Of a stretch of 64,000 bases of DNA, positions 958-62,896 are shown in pieces (the first letter of the stretch is position 1; every line of letters begins with the position of its first letter). The stretch is from a virus (lineage: Duplodnaviria > Heunggongvirae > Uroviricota > Caudoviricetes): the IMG/VR virus record IMGVR_UViG_2675903538_000004; one strand, 5' to 3'. The position numbers and the translations under genes are program-made. Below the pieces are notes generated by a model. The model was given only the letters and a program-made list of their open reading frames with translations. It was not told the DNA's origin and did not search any database.

Positions 958-1454
958 GCCCTTACAATGTAATTAAAAGCAACGTTGCGGGGGCGCATTG
1001 ATATCCATGCCCCGGTAAAATTATCCTCTGCCGTCCTTTGAGTGCCTGTTATGGAGTTATCTGATGATGCTGGAACATAATCGCTATTATTTCCTGCTTT
1101 AGGATTAGCAGGGTTTCCAACAGTTATAACAGAATCAGCAGTAGCATAAGCGATACCTACTTTGACATTAGTATTCAGATCGTAACCGTAATAATCCTGC
1201 AAAGCTGTACGAATAAATGTTGCAGTCTGACCACTTAGCAATGAACGCCCTGTATCAATCCCTCTCGAATCATCCCAACCACGGATAAACTCACCGCGTA
1301 AATCAGGTAATTTTAACGTTGGGTAAACCTTTGCCAGATTTGGGTACTTTTCAGAAGAAAATGCTGCTCCGTTACATTTCAGCCACCCCGTTGGCGGTGT
1401 GGCTGAGGGCCACGGAACGGGCACACCAACAGGCAGTGCAGAGCCTTCCCCCAA
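951..1454 (-). CDS. tail-fibre receptor-binding cassette 3
   Basis: ORF track 167 aa; same conserved ends, distinct variable core. Confidence 0.7.
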   Translation of the reverse strand: MGEGSALPVGVPVPWPSATPPTGWLKCNGAAFSSEKYPNLAKVYPTLKLPDLRGEFIRGWDDSRGIDTGRSLLSGQTATFIRTALQDYYGYDLNTNVKVGIAYATADSVITVGNPANPKAGNNSDYVPASSDNSITGTQRTAEDNFTGAWISMRPRNVAFNYIVRAT

Positions 1455-1471: not shown

Positions 1472-1932
1472 GCCCTTACGATATAATTAAACGCAATATT
1501 ACGGGGGCGGGTTTCAGATGCTGTACGAACTGAGCGAGAGGCGTCGAATGTCCAGTTATAAGCGCCATAACCCTCAATAATTTCCGTTTCCTTTAGGCCT
1601 GTAGATAATACTTGACCATGTTGACTAAATGGCCCTGAACTAAGTACATCTCTAAAAAGCTGAGTACGCCCGAAAGAACCAACAATATTCTGAATTGCAT
1701 CATTCTGTGCAGATAATAAATTACGGCCAGAGTCAATCCCCCGCCCGTCATCCCAGCCGCGAATAAATTCGCCCCGTAGATCCGGCAATTTATTAGTGGG
1801 GTAAACCTTTGCCAGATTTGGGTACTTTTCAGAAGAAAATGCTGCTCCGTTACATTTTAGCCAGCCCGTTGGTGGTGTTTCTAAGGGCCACGGAACGGGC
1901 ACACCAACAGGCAGTGCAGAGCCTTCCCCCAA
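1465..1932 (-). CDS. tail-fibre receptor-binding cassette 4
   Basis: ORF track 155 aa; same conserved ends, distinct variable core. Confidence 0.7.
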   Translation of the reverse strand: MGEGSALPVGVPVPWPLETPPTGWLKCNGAAFSSEKYPNLAKVYPTNKLPDLRGEFIRGWDDGRGIDSGRNLLSAQNDAIQNIVGSFGRTQLFRDVLSSGPFSQHGQVLSTGLKETEIIEGYGAYNWTFDASRSVRTASETRPRNIAFNYIVRAA

Positions 1933-1949
1933 ACCAACGTTTTTATGCC
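1924..1949. other. invertase crossover site D
   Basis: TTCCCCCAAACCAACGTTTTTATGCC. Confidence 0.6.
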
Positions 1950-2404
1950 GCCCTTACGATATAATTAAAGGCAATATTACGAGGACGGTTTTCATTAGCT
2001 GTTGGCACGACACGAGAGGCGTCGAATCCAAGGTCATCGGTTTTGCCTATATCAGTTGTGTTATTCGGAATTCTCGCAGATCGTGTTCCTGCATCATAAA
2101 AAGCCCCTCTGATTGCATCAAAAGACATGCCAATCCCGCCATCTGCGAACCCCTCAATATTTCTTATTGCATCCCCCTGTGAAGATAATAATTGCCGCCC
2201 GGCATCCACACCACGTCCGTCATCCCAGCCACGGATAAATTCACCGCGTAAATCCGGTAATTTATTGGTGGGGTAGGCTTTTGCCAGTTTGGGATACATT
2301 TCAGAAGAAAATGCTGCACCATTGCATTTTAGCCAGCCAGTTGGTGGTGTTTCTAAGGGCCACGGAACGGGCACACCAACAGGCAGTGCAGAGCCTTCCC
2401 CCAA
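1943..2404 (-). CDS. tail-fibre receptor-binding cassette 5
   Basis: ORF track 153 aa; same conserved ends, distinct variable core. Confidence 0.7.
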   Translation of the reverse strand: MGEGSALPVGVPVPWPLETPPTGWLKCNGAAFSSEMYPKLAKAYPTNKLPDLRGEFIRGWDDGRGVDAGRQLLSSQGDAIRNIEGFADGGIGMSFDAIRGAFYDAGTRSARIPNNTTDIGKTDDLGFDASRVVPTANENRPRNIAFNYIVRAA

Positions 2405-2992: not shown

Positions 2993-3565
2993 ATGCAAAT
3001 TGGCTACATTCGTGTGTCAACAAATGACCAAAACACAGATTTACAAAGAAATGCACTGAACTGCGCAGGATGTGAACTGATTTTTGAAGATAAAATAAGC
3101 GGAACAAAGTCAGCCAGACCAGGCTTGAAAAAGCTGCTCAGAACCTTATCAGAAGGAGATACGCTGGTTGTCTGGAAGCTGGATAGGCTTGGCAGAAGTA
3201 TGAAACACCTTATCACGCTTATAGAGGAGTTGCGGGAAAAAGGTGTTAATTTCCGTAGTCTGACAGACAGTATTGACACATCAACACCCATGGGGCGTTT
3301 CTTTTTTCATGTCATGGGTGCTTTAGCAGAAATGGAACGTGAATTAATTGTTGAGAGAACACTGGCCGGACTGGCAGCTGCACGCGAACAGGGACGCATT
3401 GGCGGACGTCGCCCGAAGTTGACAAAAGAACAACATGAGCAAATAGCGAGGTTGATCGAAAATGGCTACAGCAGGAAACAGTTGGCAATTATTTACGATA
3501 TCGGTGTATCGACGATTTATCGTTATCATCCTGTAGAGAAGCGCCAAACTCAATCTGAGCTGTAA
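2993..3565 (+). CDS. cin: serine DNA invertase (Cin/Min/Hin/Gin family)
   Basis: MQIGYIRVSTNDQNTDLQ..VVWKLDRLGRSMKHL..GRFFFHVMGALAEMEREL..GRIGGRRPKLT: resolvase catalytic domain plus C-terminal HTH; ATG at 2993 preceded by AAAGAGG (track start 2984 is TTG). Confidence 0.95.
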   Translation: MQIGYIRVSTNDQNTDLQRNALNCAGCELIFEDKISGTKSARPGLKKLLRTLSEGDTLVVWKLDRLGRSMKHLITLIEELREKGVNFRSLTDSIDTSTPMGRFFFHVMGALAEMERELIVERTLAGLAAAREQGRIGGRRPKLTKEQHEQIARLIENGYSRKQLAIIYDIGVSTIYRYHPVEKRQTQSEL

Positions 3566-4000
3566 TTCAAATGCCGCGTCGGTGTAATTTATCTTGATAG
3601 AATAGGTACATTTATCGCGCGGCACATCAATTCGATGTATCTAGCGCCTGCTGGCCGCTAATGAAAACTGTTCTCGAAATGTTGTCCCTAGTCCGAGACT
3701 AGGGTATCACCTCTGGAAAGCATACGCAGAACCTTTTTTAACCCAGGGTGTCCAGCTTTTTTGCTGCTCGCCTTATTCGCAAAAATTAGCTCACATCCTG
3801 CGCTTTCAAGTGCTTTTCACTGCATAGCTGTGTTTTGTTCATTTGTCTATATGCGTACATAGCCTATTAGCATATTTTCTGCCCACTATCGTTATTTATT
3901 GCAAGCTACAGGTTTTAATTAACAAAACCAGTGTGTGTGGAAATCACAAAGTGCATACCGTTCTCAAATGTTGTTCAACTTACTGTTGTATAGGTAAAAA

Positions 4001-4264
4001 ATGACATTTTATGTACATATCGTGATGTTATCCCTTCTTGGTGGGGTGTATTCGTATTTGAGTGGGCTATGTGAAAACCGTTACGAGTCTTCATGCAAGA
4101 AATTGCTGGCCGAATGTATTTCCGCCGTACTTGCTGGCTTTATTGGCATGTATCTCGCGGAATATAAGGACATGAATGAAAGCCTTCAGAGCTGCATGGT
4201 TCTTATTTTCAGCGCCAATAGCAGGCTTATTATTGAAGGTTCCAAAAGTCGGTTGAATAGGTAA
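4001..4264 (+). CDS. small hydrophobic protein, holin-like
   Basis: 87 aa with two hydrophobic segments, upstream of lydA; identity uncertain. Confidence 0.4.
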   Translation: MTFYVHIVMLSLLGGVYSYLSGLCENRYESSCKKLLAECISAVLAGFIGMYLAEYKDMNESLQSCMVLIFSANSRLIIEGSKSRLNR

Positions 4265-57972: not shown

Positions 57973-58048
57973 TGGTGGCCCCTACCGGACTTGAACCGGT
58001 GACCGTGCGATTATGAGTCGCCAGCTCTAACCACTGAGCTAAAGGGCC
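57973..58048 (-). tRNA. tRNA with CAU anticodon (Ile2/lysidine-type or Met)
   Basis: 76 nt GGCCCTTTAGCTCAGTGGTTAGAGC..CTCATAA..GGTTCAAGTCC..GGGGCCACCA; cloverleaf folds by hand; resembles E. coli ileX (from memory). Confidence 0.85.
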
Positions 58049-58075: not shown

Positions 58076-58903
58076 TTATTTCACCGGAACAAACGGAACA
58101 GCGGTATTACTGGTCATATACTGCGGTAATGTACCGTTCCATTTGTTGATCGCTTCCAACTCCATAACACCGGGGTTCTGGCGCAGAGCTTCACCACGTA
58201 AACGAATGGCATCAGCTTCGGCCTGGGCTTTTGTGCGAATAGCATCAGCCTGTCCGGCAGCTTCCGCGCGCAGCATGTTGGCCTCTGCTTCACGTTGTTT
58301 GACCTCTTGCTCGCGTTGCAGGGTTTTTTGGTTTGCCGTGACTTTGGCGTTAATACTGTCAATAACTGTTGGCGGGTATTCTGGCTTACCTACATAAGAG
58401 AGGCTCATCACCTGAATGCCGATTGGCGTCATTTCTTCCTGAATGTCTTTAAGGGCTGCATCAAGCAATTCAGATTTGCCACCGTCGATAAATTTGTCGG
58501 TGGTCATTTTGCTGGCTAACCGGTTCAGAGCATCTGCAACCTTCTGGCGTAGATCGGTATCAGTAATATCATCTACACCTTTGCGATAGGTCTGAAATAC
58601 CGTTGTGACTTTTGCTGGATCAACCTTGTAGGCTACGCCGATGTGGTAACCAATGGTTGTTCCGTCGCTCATCTGGAAGCTGAACGGCTCATCGTATGTC
58701 TTCATTTGCTTAAAGGTCGGGAAGATATAAACTTCAGTATTCAAGCCTGTCCAGTAGCGACCAACGCCAACTACTTCACCGATACCTTTATCATCCCCCA
58801 GCTTATTTACTTTGATCCCTACGTTACCTGGCTCTACCCGATCGCATCCGGTCAGACATAAAGAACCCAAAATAATCGCTGCACTAATCAACGTTTTTTT
58901 CAT
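58076..58903 (-). CDS. plp: SPFH/band-7 domain lipoprotein
   Basis: Lipobox LTGC after signal peptide; prohibitin-like core; Ala/Glu-rich C-terminal coil. Confidence 0.7.
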   Translation of the reverse strand: MKKTLISAAIILGSLCLTGCDRVEPGNVGIKVNKLGDDKGIGEVVGVGRYWTGLNTEVYIFPTFKQMKTYDEPFSFQMSDGTTIGYHIGVAYKVDPAKVTTVFQTYRKGVDDITDTDLRQKVADALNRLASKMTTDKFIDGGKSELLDAALKDIQEEMTPIGIQVMSLSYVGKPEYPPTVIDSINAKVTANQKTLQREQEVKQREAEANMLRAEAAGQADAIRTKAQAEADAIRLRGEALRQNPGVMELEAINKWNGTLPQYMTSNTAVPFVPVK

Positions 58904-59120
58904 TAATTAATTTCCTGGTTTTTTCACGAAAAAAGACTACTGCGAAAGCCGGGTAAATGAGCGCGAGAAGGACTCCCAACAATACAAGTATTGTGCTGTT
59001 AGATGAGATCATATTTGGCAAAAGCCAAACATACAGAACCAGTGACACAATCAAACAGAGGACGGCATAAATATATAACCGCACCCATAGCGTTCGACAT
59101 TTGTTCGAATTGTTCTGCAT
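58884..59120 (-). CDS. upl: small membrane protein
   Basis: 78 aa, two TM segments, overlaps plp start. Confidence 0.45.
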   Translation of the reverse strand: MQNNSNKCRTLWVRLYIYAVLCLIVSLVLYVWLLPNMISSNSTILVLLGVLLALIYPAFAVVFFREKTRKLINEKNVD

Positions 59121-59279
59121 CCTCTCACTCCATTATTTAACGAATAAAAAAGCTGCGGTGCCGGGTGCCTCCCGGTGTCCTTTGGCTGGTTATCCACCGT
59201 GGACGGGGAAACAAGGAGAAATGAATGGACTGATATAACCATTTCCCCGCGTGCGCTTAGCCGCATTCACCGCAACGGA

Positions 59280-60048
59280 AAGAGCATTCTTGGTGGACCT
59301 GTAGATTGGGATATGAACCCGTTACAGGAGAATGCTCTTACCTGTTACGTGCTCCGTTTCGTGGAGCTAACGGCGGGTGATCGGGCCGCACCAGGCTGGA
59401 CTTATTTCAGCGTTATGCTCATGCCAGAGAATCAAACTGTGATGGTCGGTGCTGAACTCCGACACAGGGTTGTAGCAAGCCCCGCAAAGCGCGCACTACT
59501 GTAGTTGCGGCACATCAGCCTGTGCATTCACCACAATGTTGAGAACACTGGTTGTCACGCTGCAACGCAACATTTATTCGTAGATTGGGATATGACCCCG
59601 TTACGCCAGTGTTCTCAACGTTGTAGTGCCGGTTACGGTTCCGGCCAGGCCTCTTCCTCAACGGGGTGTTCTCCATACGGACTACCGTTTATTGGTCGTT
59701 CCTGCGGTTTATGTTGTGAAGCCAGATGCTTATCTTCTGGTTGCTTCAAAGAGCTGCACTTCATCACAACGGTAAGAGCACTCGATGCATTTAAGCCAAG
59801 CCCCATAAGGGAGAATGCCCTTACCTGTTGTGTTGTGATGACCGGTGCTGATCTCCGGCTTGCGGTTATTTCAGACTCTCACGGGCGTTTAATTGCCCCG
59901 CCGAACAGCTCTTTTCCGCAATAGCTGCAATGTCTTTCGCGCATCAGCCTGCGCATTCATCACAACGGTAAGGGTACTTCGTAGGGATTCGAACCCTCTG
60001 CCAAGCTCGGCGATCTCCGACGTCGCAAAATACCCTTACCTGTTGTGC
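59280..60048. repeat. structured repeat region: tRNA-like fragment and repeated hairpin modules sharing CCCTTACCTGTTGTG / CAGCCTG(T/C)GCATTCA motifs
   Basis: Recurrent motifs at about 59335, 59515, 59815, 59945, 60031 (and 60471); 18-bp inverted repeat 59537-59554 / 59606-59623; T-arm-like GGGTTCGAATCCC at about 59980 without acceptor stem. Confidence 0.45.
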
Positions 60049-60124
60049 TGGTGCCGATTAACGGAATCGAACCGCTGACATCCTGCTTACAAGGCAGGCG
60101 CTCTACCAACTGAGCTAAACCGGC
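60049..60124 (-). tRNA. tRNA-Thr (UGU)
   Basis: 76 nt GCCGGTTTAGCTCAGTTGGTAGAGC..CTTGTAA..GGTTCGATTCC..CGGCACCA. Confidence 0.85.
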
Positions 60125-60126
60125 AT

Positions 60127-60202
60127 TGGCGATGGTGGATGGATTTGAACCATCGACCCGTTGATTAACAGTCAACCGCTCTAACCGCTGAGCTACACCA
60201 TC
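60127..60202 (-). tRNA. tRNA-Asn (GUU)
   Basis: 76 nt GATGGTGTAGCTCAGCGGTTAGAGC..CTGTTAA..GGTTCAAATCC..CACCATCGCCA; separated from tRNA-Thr by 2 nt. Confidence 0.85.
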
Positions 60203-60870
60203 ACTTGCCGGGTACGTCTCCGGCGAGGGCTTCCACCTCCGTATGCTTTTCGGCGCACCGCGCCCTGGCTGCAATTCGGTAACAGGGGATGCATAACCCT
60301 GGCTTCCAGCGTGATTAGCGCTTTCAGCATGACGGGATATACCCGTAAATTCGTGGAACTGTACCCAAAGTGCTGTTAAGCACCGCTGTTACGCTGAAAA
60401 GAAGACGCAACAGGAAAGGACGCTGACCAACAGATGGCCCCTTCTCGTTCATCTGGTTAATCACACCAGCGCCCTTACCTGTTGTGCCTCCCCGTTCCCT
60501 AATACACAGACGGGGACACTCTGCGGTCGATTTTTTGACGGGGGACGACTCATACCCCGTGGCGTCTGGCTTCTTATGCCGCTACCATCATCAGATCATC
60601 GTTTGCATTTACTTTAATGGTCAGTTTCTAAACCGCCGCAAAGTCGCTAACCATGACGAAAACCCTGAAAAAAACGCCCACCCGAAGATGGGCAAACTGG
60701 AAGCTCGTAACGCACTTCGGTGTTGCCACTTAGGCGTATGGTCAACCTGGCAACTCGGCGTCATGAGGGGGAAGGAGTCACTACCCCGCCATACTTGCCG
60801 CCGCGCCTGTCGCGGCTAACAGCTAAATCGCTCTATAAATCACGATTCATTGATGCGATATTACACTAAT

Positions 60871-60887
60871 AAATTTATTAGAGCAAT
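60871..60887. promoter_or_regulatory. C1 operator (perfect consensus), overlapping a second inverted half (60861-60876)
   Basis: AAATTTATTAGAGCAAT is the exact reverse complement of ATTGCTCTAATAAATTT; overlaps dmt stop; head of the leftward tRNA-plp-ban operon. Confidence 0.7.
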
Positions 60888-62896
60888 ATTGCTATAACGT
60901 CATGAGCAACACCTCGAGTGTCCCCCTTACAAGACACAGAACGTCTGGCAAAAAGAGGTTCCACTCTGAAGCCACTGTCCTGATAAAGTTCTCTGATGTT
61001 TGGCGCGCCACTGTTAGTAATGAGAACCTTTGCACCTCGGCGATGAGCATCCGTCAACAGAGACGCCAGGCGTTTTTGCTCTTCAAACTTAAAGTCATGA
61101 CCGGAATAGTTCGTGAATCCCTCTGTATTTGGGAGCGGTTCATACGGCGGATCACAAAAGATGACATCTCCTTCTCCGGCAGCTTCAATCACCGCAGCAA
61201 AATCACCACATACAAACTCAGAACGCCCTTCCGCACCAAGGAAGGCTTCCATCTCCTGCAATGGGAAATACGGAGTTTTATACTTCCCATAACCGACATT
61301 GAACTCACCGGCTTGGTTGTAACGCGTCAATCCGTTAAAACAATGTCGGTTCAGGAACAAAAACGCCGCTGCGCGATGTAAATCATCATAGACTTGTTTG
61401 TTAAACGCATTCCGTACTGCCAGGTATCCTTCCTGCGTGTTGTAGTCCTGGAAGAAACGATGTGCCAGAGTGATAAGTGAATGCGCCTCGCGTTGCAGAG
61501 TCTTGTAAAAGTTAATCAGGTCAGCATTCACATCATTTAGCAGATTTTCCTGGTATCCGGCATTCATGAAGACAGCTCCGCCACCAACGAAAGGCTCAAT
61601 CAGGCGCTTCCCTTCTGGCAAATAGCGAAAGATTTGTTCCAGAACACCAAATTTTCCACCAGCCCATTTGAATATGGACCGTTCGAATTCTGCCGCTGGT
61701 TTAACTTTTCGCTCTTTTGTTTCACTCCCTTCCTTCTGCCGACATGCAGCCTTGGCAATCCGATCGCCAATCCAGCGCATTACTGGTATCGCCATACTAT
61801 TGCCGATCGCTTTGTAACGCGGTCCGTCAGCTGCAAGCATCGCGGCCTCTTCTTCGCTCAAATCAGGATAGTTTTTGCGAAGGTATGCCAGTTCATCTGA
61901 AGAAACTTTTTTACGCTTTTCCGTAGGGATCAATGTATGTCCATCAGGAAAACCTTGCAGCCTTTCACATTCGACAGGGATAAGACGGCGCATTCTACCG
62001 TCGACGAGCAATACAATTGGTGCTTCATGGTTACATGTCAAAGTTGGTGCCGAATTATCGGTTTTTATCTCAGCCCCTCCTTGCCCATGTGCCATGGCAA
62101 CTATGTTTGTATCATCGCAAGATCTGATAGCGATGTTTGAAGTATATCTGGTAGTTTCCTTCCCCTCGCCTCTGCTCGGCGCAATATTCCGGCGCACGCC
62201 TTCGAACTCAAAAAGTACCGTTGCGGGATCGAGGTCTGTTCGAGCACTTGCGACAACAAACACGCGTCGGCGTCGTTGTGCCACTCCGAAGTATTGGGCA
62301 TCAAGGATTCTCCAGGCCACCTTTCGCTGCGGTCCATAAATACAACCACACTGCGGCCACTTTGGAGCATGGCAACCGGTTTTGCCATCCCACCGCCAGA
62401 ACGCGTTACTTTTTCCTGATTCAGGTCGATCACCTGGTTCAAATGGCGCATCTTCTCCAGCCAATCCGGCAAGGAAACATCCGAAGGCGTTATCTGCCGA
62501 TGACAGGACTCCTGGGACATTTTCCCAGACGATAACTGTCGGTTTGAGGAAGGACTCAGACCGTTTGTCGTCAATTGCATTTGCAAGCTCCACATACTTC
62601 AAAGTTAGCGCGCCGCGTTCATCATCAAGCCCACCACGTAAGCCCGCGATACTGAATGCCTGACAAGGCGTACCCCCGACGAGCACATCAGGGGATTCGA
62701 TTTCCCCAGCCAGGACTTTTTTGGCAAGTTTTGTCATGTCGCCAAGGTTGGCGACATGGGGCCAGCGGTGCGCAAGAACGGCAGATGGAAAAGGCTCGAT
62801 TTCAGCAAACCACGCCGGACGCATACCCAACGGTTCCCAGGCAATACTCGCGGCTTCAATTCCACTGCAAACAGATCCATAGCACAGCTCTTTCAC
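60878..62896 (-). CDS. dmt: two-domain DNA methyltransferase (N-terminal C5-cytosine MTase, C-terminal Dam-like N6-adenine MTase)
   Basis: GTPCQAFS and ENVPG (C5-MTase motifs) in N-terminal half; DPPY motif in C-terminal half. Confidence 0.85.

Follow-up and report, generated by a model that had tools for sequence, protein, structure and literature searches.

A modular array of structured RNAs with a tmRNA-like tag module in the untranslated front part of the ban operon of a P1-like phage-plasmid

Background

In phage T4, the tRNA transcription unit also carries species 1 and 2 (rnaC/rnaD), stable structured RNAs other than tRNAs that are released by processing. Here we analyze a region that resembles this arrangement: an array of tRNAs, long hairpins, structured spacer units and a module resembling transfer-messenger RNA (tmRNA), on the minus strand of a 64,000-nt stretch of viral DNA (IMG/VR record IMGVR_UViG_2675903538_000004; hereafter, the window). 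The window is a P1-like phage-plasmid: over 59100-60900 it is 98-99% identical to phages vB_EcoM-813R1 and RCS47, and its identity to P1 is 97.6% across 87% of that length.

Two described systems come closest to individual parts of the array. The first is formed by STnc100 and PasD, related prophage small RNAs (sRNAs); the Pas sRNAs come from Hfq RIL-seq and have been confirmed on northern blots (doi 10.64898/2026.05.13.724894). The second is tmRNA (SsrA). A 2014 census found phage ssrA in mycobacteriophages and Bacillus phage G only (PMC4131195), and we found no relevant paper on tmRNA-like RNAs in phages in the literature.

P1 is a textbook phage, yet some 1.7 kb of its early ban operon has been covered for twenty years by two doubtful protein annotations. 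These genes, upl and plp (record NC_005856), occupy the same DNA as the repeat region of the array, on the opposite strand. In the present analysis, we find that the minus strand of 59145-60870 is the untranslated, non-coding front part of the C1-repressed ban operon. This island holds two tRNAs, five long hairpins (H), three members of an RNA family that we call X, and a tmRNA-like tag module. H, X and the pseudoknots of the tag module are real structures, and the array is modular, widespread and co-oriented with the C1-controlled operon. Most likely, we infer, one precursor is processed into stable small RNAs that act on host translation.

Results and discussion

A covarying family of spacer units

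Read in the minus-strand sense, the array alternates long hairpins with spacer units. A full X unit is built from a closing stem of 9 bp (NNNNNGGUG ... CACCN'N'N'N'N'), the linker AAU, a 5-bp hairpin (P2) with the loop GGCUGA, a hypervariable insert of 30-100 nt, and another 5-bp hairpin (P3) with a AGAUCAGCA loop, after which the closing strand follows directly. The modeled topology is cloverleaf-like, with P3 stacked back on the closing stem and the insert in the place of the tRNA anticodon arm. We defined the family through an alignment (A1) and a covariance model (R1) and took a census of units with nhmmer anchors. Within the 64 kb, R1 matches three units over their full length and nothing else (X1, X3a and X4), and in these three the closing stem and the hairpins with the GGCUGA and AGAUCAGCA loops stand in register. 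Two further spacers are degenerate. X0 is not matched by R1 and is 97-99% conserved among P1-like elements; in part of X2 (X2a, 59713-59770), which is 83-95% identical to unannotated DNA in Klebsiella, Salmonella and E. coli phages, the closing stem is preserved together with a P3-like hairpin.

The helices are borne out by covariation. Across 43 diverse X units, 96.9% of cells are paired, versus 87.5% after shuffling, and sliding the partner columns by 1-3 lowers pairing to 28-52%. Twelve pairs change on both sides, a number reached by none of 500 shuffles, and 6 of the 9 closing-stem pairs covary. P2 covaries even in units that were collected through P3 (GCGCA/UGCGC, GCGAA/UUCGC, GCCCG/CGGGC, GCCGG/CCGGC). 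The closing strands were initially located by complementarity; their pairing is not an artifact of this selection, because they always adjoin independently conserved hairpins. X is a real structured-RNA family, and a previously undescribed one: Rfam gave no family at threshold on 15 X loci, and the X motifs were not found in the literature, an earlier description beyond the searchable literature being possible.

Non-Watson-Crick pairs in the X helices comprise 17 G.U and 6 A.C, and among X units within 300 nt of a tRNA, 28 lie on its strand and 1 on the opposite strand. Both counts point to RNA that is read in this sense. A role as DNA, in which the elements would be recombination or cassette-exchange sites or single-strand initiation signals, could draw on the fact that the junctions are inverted repeats at which modules are exchanged exactly. 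We nevertheless judge it very unlikely in view of this G.U excess, of an orientation that is strictly that of the tRNAs and surrounding operons, of the detection of the relatives STnc100 and PasD as RNAs, and of a neighboring tag frame that is conserved as a peptide (see below).

Across Proteobacteria, X is present at more than 300 loci, both viral and bacterial. When viral contigs were scanned with one or the other conserved hairpin, each scan gave at least 120 loci, together about 200 units that nearly all differ in their inserts, and a genome scan gave at least 120 loci in Gamma-, Beta- and some Alphaproteobacteria. The first X hairpin has a 23-mer that recurs exactly in at least 120 bacterial species, including Enterobacterales, Pseudomonas, Burkholderiales, Neisseriales, Xanthomonadales and a few Alphaproteobacteria. 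An X1-like element, 96-99% identical, is found in 856 of 5426 complete E. coli genomes (16%) at 715 chromosomal places; it is never annotated, and it sits in the leader between a cI-type repressor gene and yfdP. Some inserts are tRNA D-arm and T-arm sequences (loci L118, ~3943-4056(+), L047 and L112), and the Rfam tRNA model scores 34 bits inside the L118 unit.

By sequence comparison, X is a distant relative of the prophage sRNA STnc100. The STnc100 model (RF02076) gives X4 37.8 bits, below its gathering threshold of 47, and does not match X1 or X3a even at E = 10; in the reverse direction, R1 aligns a genuine STnc100 (Stx2 phage PA2) over its full length at 19.2 bits. STnc100 and PasD share with X a closing stem with GGUG/CACC, the AAU linker, a 5' hairpin, a variable middle, a CCGG-type 3' hairpin beside the closing strand, and location in prophages. 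STnc100 differs in its hairpin sequences and loops, and it has its own linker and terminator, whereas X1 and X3a lie inside a polycistronic array. X is abundant, highly constrained and absent from Rfam, and it connects two prophage sRNAs associated with Hfq, STnc100 and PasD, with a far larger family.

About 14% of X units lie within 300 nt of a same-strand tRNA. Solitary units in viral contigs come after S24-type repressors or Q antiterminators and before lambda-S holins. In 45-49 of 256 units, a boxA-like hexamer (UGCUCU, GCUCUU or CUCUUU) occurs within the 60 nt upstream, typically as (C)AGUGCUCUUUCC directly before the closing stem (e.g., loci L325, L026 and L056). The foremost alternative to a trans-acting role builds on these contexts: X and H would act in cis as antitermination or attenuation devices (put-, nut- or boxA-like), letting RNA polymerase through a long untranslated, terminator-containing leader to ban. 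Solitary X units in operon leaders, after cI-type repressors or between Q and holin, would suit such devices, as would the boxA-like hexamers and the closing stem of X4, which has a U tract behind it and competes for a shared strand with hairpin H_D. We regard this alternative as unlikely all the same. Most X units have no adjacent terminator, several copies stand in tandem, and late operons with Q should need no such device. In the window, the boxA-like UGCUCUUU is present in only 2 of 5 hairpins; such bases are paired within the H stems and change with compensation. A general alternative pairing of the closing strand with an upstream copy was also rejected across all loci, where a 9-mer test did no better than the downstream control; because that test failed, we claim alternative closing-strand pairing for P1-type arrays only.

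Two observations belong beside these contexts. The sequence (C)AGUGCUCUUUCC shares 8 nt with the rrn boxA core, and locus L047 carries an Rfam Proteo-phage-1 RNA (3205-3282(-), 76.8 bits) about 125 nt upstream of a same-strand X unit.

Long hairpins and tRNA-like pieces

The five long, near-perfect hairpins (H_E, H_A, H_B, H_C and H_D) have fold z-scores of -5.8 to -8.1 against 200 shuffles each, none of which was as stable. With their flanks, the stems reach 20-25 bp; a hairpin processed by RNase III would have about 20 bp or more of near-perfect double-stranded RNA and be cleaved in vivo. They share a repeated junction, ...CACAAC / AGGUAAGGG ... CCCUUACC / GUUGUGAUGAAUGC.... The initial annotation of this region had reported a motif in at least three copies, one of them abutting tRNA-Thr, and an 18-bp inverted repeat. 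The motif, the 15-mer CACAACAGGTAAGGG, has exactly 3 copies, all on the minus strand, against 0.05 expected from shuffles: one in H_B (59818-59832), one in H_E (60472-60486) and one beginning 2 nt past tRNA-Thr (60033-60047). The inverted repeat, given as 59537-59554 / 59606-59623, is real and longer, with 23-nt arms (59529-59551 / 59606-59628) that are 91% complementary and form H_C. X-type loci elsewhere have similar neighbors: a stem of at least 12 bp lies directly upstream of X at 167 of 271 loci, versus 9 of 150 shuffled controls, and 17 of these 167 stems contain T-loop-like motifs, about five times chance by a hand estimate.

H_A consists of a 15-bp stem around a small hairpin and a canonical T-arm (GGG-UUCGAAU-CCC), with no anticodon arm. 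The T-arm-like sequence within an inverted repeat that had been noted earlier is thus present, as GGGTTCGAATCCC in a stem of 13-15 bp, enclosed by arms at 59967-59979 / 60028-60040. ARAGORN and the Rfam tRNA model, even at E <= 10, call just the three true tRNAs and none of the tRNA-like fragments in H_A, H_C and H_D. A reading of H_A as a tRNA or a Y RNA was rejected for want of model support. Its predicted shape, a long stem that ends in a T-arm and a D-arm-like hairpin and lacks an anticodon arm, is like that of the bacterial Y RNA YrlA, which has a tRNA-like module on a long stem, but the Rfam YrlA model matches only the true tRNAs. An AgvB-like sponge was rejected as well: CACAACA and CUUACCGUUGUGAUG look like a target of GcvB and its R1 region, Rfam AgvB has no match even at E = 10, and these motifs are explained as part of the X and H junction.

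Fragments of this kind raise the question of decay. The repeats could be functionless debris, made of decayed tRNA genes and the scars of tRNA-cassette recombination, and the T-arm fragments in H_A and, more weakly, in H_C and H_D would be its remains; the tRNA-Ser, tRNA-Tyr or tRNA-Arg genes in the same slots of relatives, the swaps of whole modules (see below) and the degenerate X0 and X2 also fit. Against this stand the compensatory changes and invariant loops of X, the 96-99% identity of X1 across hundreds of unrelated prophages, an exact 23-mer common to several proteobacterial classes, and H stems that stay perfectly paired despite sequence differences, and we consider debris quite unlikely as an account of the array. 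Of the suggestion that the repeats are degenerate tRNA copies, this much is supported, that some pieces are tRNA-like; for the most part, the repeats are the conserved, covarying X family and the long hairpins.

A related array is found in the SSU5-like Salmonella plasmid pSTM_Phi (locus L011), where 2 kb of unannotated DNA hold a tag module, H hairpins, X units, tRNA-Asn and tRNA-Ser. This array also contains a tRNA-Thr-like gene (1870-1999(+)) that keeps the acceptor, D and T arms and has about 70 nt in place of the anticodon arm; the Rfam tRNA model gives it 46.7 bits over 130 nt.

A tmRNA-like tag module

Upstream of the tRNAs lies a module of about 190 nt, inside the interval 59121-60870 covered by the initial annotation, which had missed it. 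Its conserved 5' block (GUUUUCG...GCGACUUUGCGG...UUUAGAAACUGACCA..UAAAU) leads into a frame without a start codon: UAAAU precedes it, an in-frame UAG lies 8 codons upstream, and there is no ATG, GTG or TTG between. The frame begins with GCA, ends in hydrophobic residues and alanine, and is followed directly by two H-type pseudoknots. Homologues of the surrounding 190 nt occur in 292 phage records of widely differing kinds, almost never annotated, among them P1-like phages, Ackermannviridae, N4-like Gamaleyavirus, several siphoviruses and an Aeromonas phage; in the lambdoid phage HK633, the module stands between Q and the holin gene.

The frame is 10 codons long in all homologues. We found 15 distinct tags, all of the form A-N-[DE]...[AV]-A followed by a stop, with variants including ANDDVVLMAA, ANEEMYLAVA, ANDEQFLAVA, ANDNTFLAVA, ANDEKFALAA and ANDNQYLAVA. 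Alanine codons differ from phage to phage by synonymous changes, which points to conservation at the peptide level. All four pseudoknot helices show compensatory changes at fixed offsets; one of them reads CCGA/UCGG, GUCG/CGAC, CCAA/UUGG, CCAG/CUGG and CUAG/CUAG across homologues.

In these respects the module is like tmRNA, including its permuted two-piece form, which has a start-less frame of this length with a hydrophobic and alanine end before the stop, as well as pseudoknots after it. The resume context UAAAU/GCA AAC GAU matches that of tmRNA, and the 5' block resembles the D-loop region of tmRNA, both judged by the E. coli ssrA sequence. The Rfam model tmRNA_permuted (RF04321) scores the resume region at 22.6 bits in the window, 33.4 in phage Bp4 and 29.2 in phage Akira, all below its threshold of 47. 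The module differs from tmRNA in its size, just ~190 nt, and in having no acceptor stem with G3:U70, no T-arm and no in-register CCA end. ARAGORN called no tmRNA in the window, nor at any of five homologous loci.

In Bp4 (locus L340), odd tRNA-like genes flank the tag module at 1010-1081 and 1373-1451(+). ARAGORN calls them 'tRNA-Ala(cgc)', which lacks G3:U70, and 'tRNA-Cys(aca)', with a T-arm that scores 15.5 bits against the 3' end of the tmRNA model.

Several lineages keep the order hairpin, tag module, hairpin, X unit, and the X of this order is the degenerate X0 in P1-like elements. Because that order is fixed in several lineages, our analysis suggests that the pieces could assemble into one ribonucleoprotein, with a tRNA-like part supplied by H or X after processing. 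As a tentative proposal, P1-like and many unrelated phages may carry a working miniature tmRNA with its own degradation tag, plus tRNA-shaped X scaffolds with variable cargo, which would jointly take over or blunt host ribosome rescue and tRNA-directed defenses. This proposal would cover N4-like, Vi01-like and lambdoid phages and several siphoviruses. If the tag module is used in trans-translation, tmRNAs encoded by phages would reach far past the mycobacteriophages and Bacillus phage G of the 2014 census, and the module would give a new angle on how phages handle stalled ribosomes or defenses that cut tRNA or mRNA.

Exchange of modules among P1 relatives

Module borders that we drew by eye are the breakpoints among P1, P7, D6, SJ46 and plasmids. 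Downstream of tRNA-Thr, the window and RCS47 carry H_A X1 H_B X2 H_C X3 H_D X4. P1 has H_A X2 H_C X3 H_D X4, without X1 and H_B; P7 has H_B X2 H_C, tRNA-Ser and X4', without H_A and X1; D6 has H_A X2 H_C, tRNA-Ser and X4'; and SJ46 has H_A X2, an H_C/H_D hybrid and X4, having lost X3. Further plasmids have added tRNA-Tyr and tRNA-Arg(UCU) in these slots. A shaping of the region by recombination at the repeated junctions is supported, as the initial annotation had allowed in mentioning a recombination scar. The tRNA-Ser(UGA) of P7 and D6 (loci L004 and L005, 1638-1724(-)) is unannotated in the P7 record, and the D6 record places all three tRNAs on the strand opposite to the ARAGORN calls.

The upl and plp frames

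The annotation of upl and plp is reportedly due to Lobocka et al. 2004. In favor of proteins Upl and Plp, ORFs of 109 codons (59175-59504) and 139 codons (59505-59924) are intact in the window, the genes are annotated in P1 and RCS47, PHROG families are known for the upl ORF, and one plus-strand frame has just 4 stops in 909 nt. Such a low number of stops falls short of significance (P = 0.057 over six frames). Relatives do not keep the frames, which are interrupted, shifted, truncated or absent in P7, D6, SJ46, Ro157c2YLVW and three plasmids, with DNA that is otherwise 91-99% identical. Plp differs completely in its last third between P1 and the window because P1 lacks two modules, so that the C-terminus varies with module content. 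The 61 distinct substitutions fall on codon positions 1/2/3 as 17/21/23, with no third-position bias, and all 4 indel runs have a length of 1 mod 3; each therefore shifts the frame. The ORFs have no Pfam match, and the region is empty in the RefSeq annotation of hundreds of plasmids and chromosomes. In P1, plp starts with TTG and overlaps tRNA-Thr in antisense, and the predicted upl promoters lie within tciA, a gene missing from the window. A CRISPRi screen scored both genes as non-essential (PMC10695390).

With frames broken in relatives, no codon bias, frame-shifting indels and no Pfam match, we conclude that upl and plp are not genes; going by these comparisons, their annotations are almost certainly artifacts, and a protein-coding plus strand is scarcely credible. 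The absence of a convincing ORF from the region, as first proposed, is thereby upheld. Annotated genes with intact frames in relatives had been named as evidence against that proposal; P1 and RCS47 formally provide them, but in the shape of these artifacts. The names upl and plp had also been misplaced: the downstream genes so called are an SPFH/membrane protein pair, and the P1 genes lie on the plus strand inside the repeat region.

A working model of the array

We hold, with slightly better than even confidence, that the region is a non-coding modular RNA island whose precursor is processed, whose X RNAs act in trans, whose tag RNA serves in ribosome rescue, and which is remodeled by recombination. 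Upon derepression, one long precursor would be transcribed and cut into the tRNAs and several small RNAs that are stable. The long H stems (20-25 bp) are plausible sites for RNase III, and RNase P, RNase E and exonucleases would act at tRNA-like ends. X RNAs would act in trans via their variable inserts, as proposed for STnc100 and PasD, and the tmRNA-like RNA would act on stalled ribosomes or SmpB. Recombination at the repeated junction (...CACAAC / hairpin / GUUGUG...) would rebuild the array. X4, whose closing stem is followed by a U6 tract, is likely the 3' end of the RNA array.

Several observations weigh against this model. A strong terminator (60675-60694) precedes the whole array, and transcription would have to pass it. 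Neither X1 nor X3a has its own terminator, which makes their release depend on putative processing, and two spacers, X0 and X2, are degenerate. The closing strand of X can instead extend a neighboring H hairpin, which the minimum-energy fold of the whole region prefers. A putative loop-loop contact between the two X hairpins would involve loops that are both invariant. For the tag module, no alanine-type tRNA-like domain (acceptor stem with G3:U70, T-arm, 3' CCA) was recognized; the H and X stems have no G3:U70, and the domain might be a processed or two-piece one. Finally, the P1vir RNA-seq literature does not resolve the region, and small-RNA data were not found there. X and the tag module are directly testable in E. 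coli with existing P1 genetics.

Operon context and remaining features

On the minus strand, dmt (60878-62896) is followed by a bivalent C1 operator with the ban-operon promoter, about 670 nt that are gene-free, tRNA-Asn and tRNA-Thr, another ~900 nt that are gene-free, a small membrane ORF, an SPFH/Band-7 gene, the CAU tRNA and ban (Table 1). A perfect C1 operator had been placed at the head of this unit, and the 17-mer ATTGCTCTAATAAATTT is indeed found at 60871-60887(-), with a partner carrying 2 mismatches at 60860-60876(+); the homologous site in the P1 record is annotated Obanab/P1ban. The terminator-like hairpin lies ~190 nt past this C1-controlled promoter, upstream of the tRNAs and ban. 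The P1 record labels the area around 60675-60694 'dicF-like region', but a DicF match is not found there with Rfam.

The three minus-strand tRNAs of the initial annotation (Asn-GUU, Thr-UGU and CAU) are called by both ARAGORN and Rfam. Its remark that the tci genes of P1 are not seen here is likewise correct: tciA, tciB and tciC are replaced in the window by the SPFH gene and the small membrane protein.

Table 1. Positions of the RNA elements and neighboring features in the window
Feature	Position	Strand	Comment
Bivalent C1 operator (Oban)	60860-60887	-	Overlaps the ban-operon promoter
Terminator-like element	60675-60694	-	GC hairpin then U7; terminator scan; directly adjoins the tmRNA-like module
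tmRNA-like module	60481-60667	-	Upstream of the tRNAs; tag frame and two H-type pseudoknots
Tag frame	60606-60574	-	10 codons; GCA AAC GAT GAT CTG ATG ATG GTA GCG GCA TAA = ANDDLMMVAA*
Two H-type pseudoknots	~60526-60560 and 60489-60525	-	Directly after the tag stop
Hairpin H_E	60400-60491	-	CACAAC-AGGUAAGGGCGCUGG ... CAGCGUCCUUUCC-UGUUGCG; minimum free energy -48.4 kcal/mol, z = -5.9
X0, degenerate spacer	60203-60399	-	By sequence; P3-like hairpin (GCCGGAGACGUACCCGGC) right before tRNA-Asn
tRNA-Asn (GUU)	60127-60202	-	ARAGORN; Rfam 74.5 bits
tRNA-Thr (UGU)	60049-60124	-	ARAGORN; Rfam 73.4 bits
Hairpin H_A	59967-60048	-	Inverted repeat I8; z = -6.1
X1, full X member	59832-59966	-	R1 81.3 bits, E = 4e-20; opposite strand 9.2 bits
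Hairpin H_B	59771-59831	-	~23 bp counting flanks; z = -5.75
X2, reduced/degenerate X-type spacer	59621-59770	-	R1 only 12.5 bits
Hairpin H_C	59537-59620	-	Inverted repeat I1; z = -7.1
X3a, full X member	59436-59537	-	R1 69.6 bits, E = 7e-17
X3b, spacer	59345-59435	-	By sequence; ends in hairpin and CACGUAAC; module boundary in relatives
Hairpin H_D	59277-59344	-	Inverted repeat I3; z = -8.1
X4, divergent X/STnc100-like unit	59145-59276	-	R1 30.1 bits, E = 6.5e-6; z = -3.6
ORFs, almost certainly spurious	59175-59924	+	Equivalents: P1 upl 59313-59504, plp 59505-59924
78-aa membrane ORF	58884-59120	-	Where P1 has the tci genes
SPFH/Band-7 gene	58076-58903	-	Pfam PF01145, E = 1e-30
CAU tRNA	57973-58048	-	ARAGORN and Rfam; outside 59121-60870

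In one P1-like relative (Escherichia sp. MOD1-EC7003, locus L297), the Dmt methyltransferase upstream of the array has 1013 aa and contains, directly behind the GGTPC motif, an intein-like insertion (CFTAGH ... VVHNC) that includes a LAGLIDADG-like stretch.

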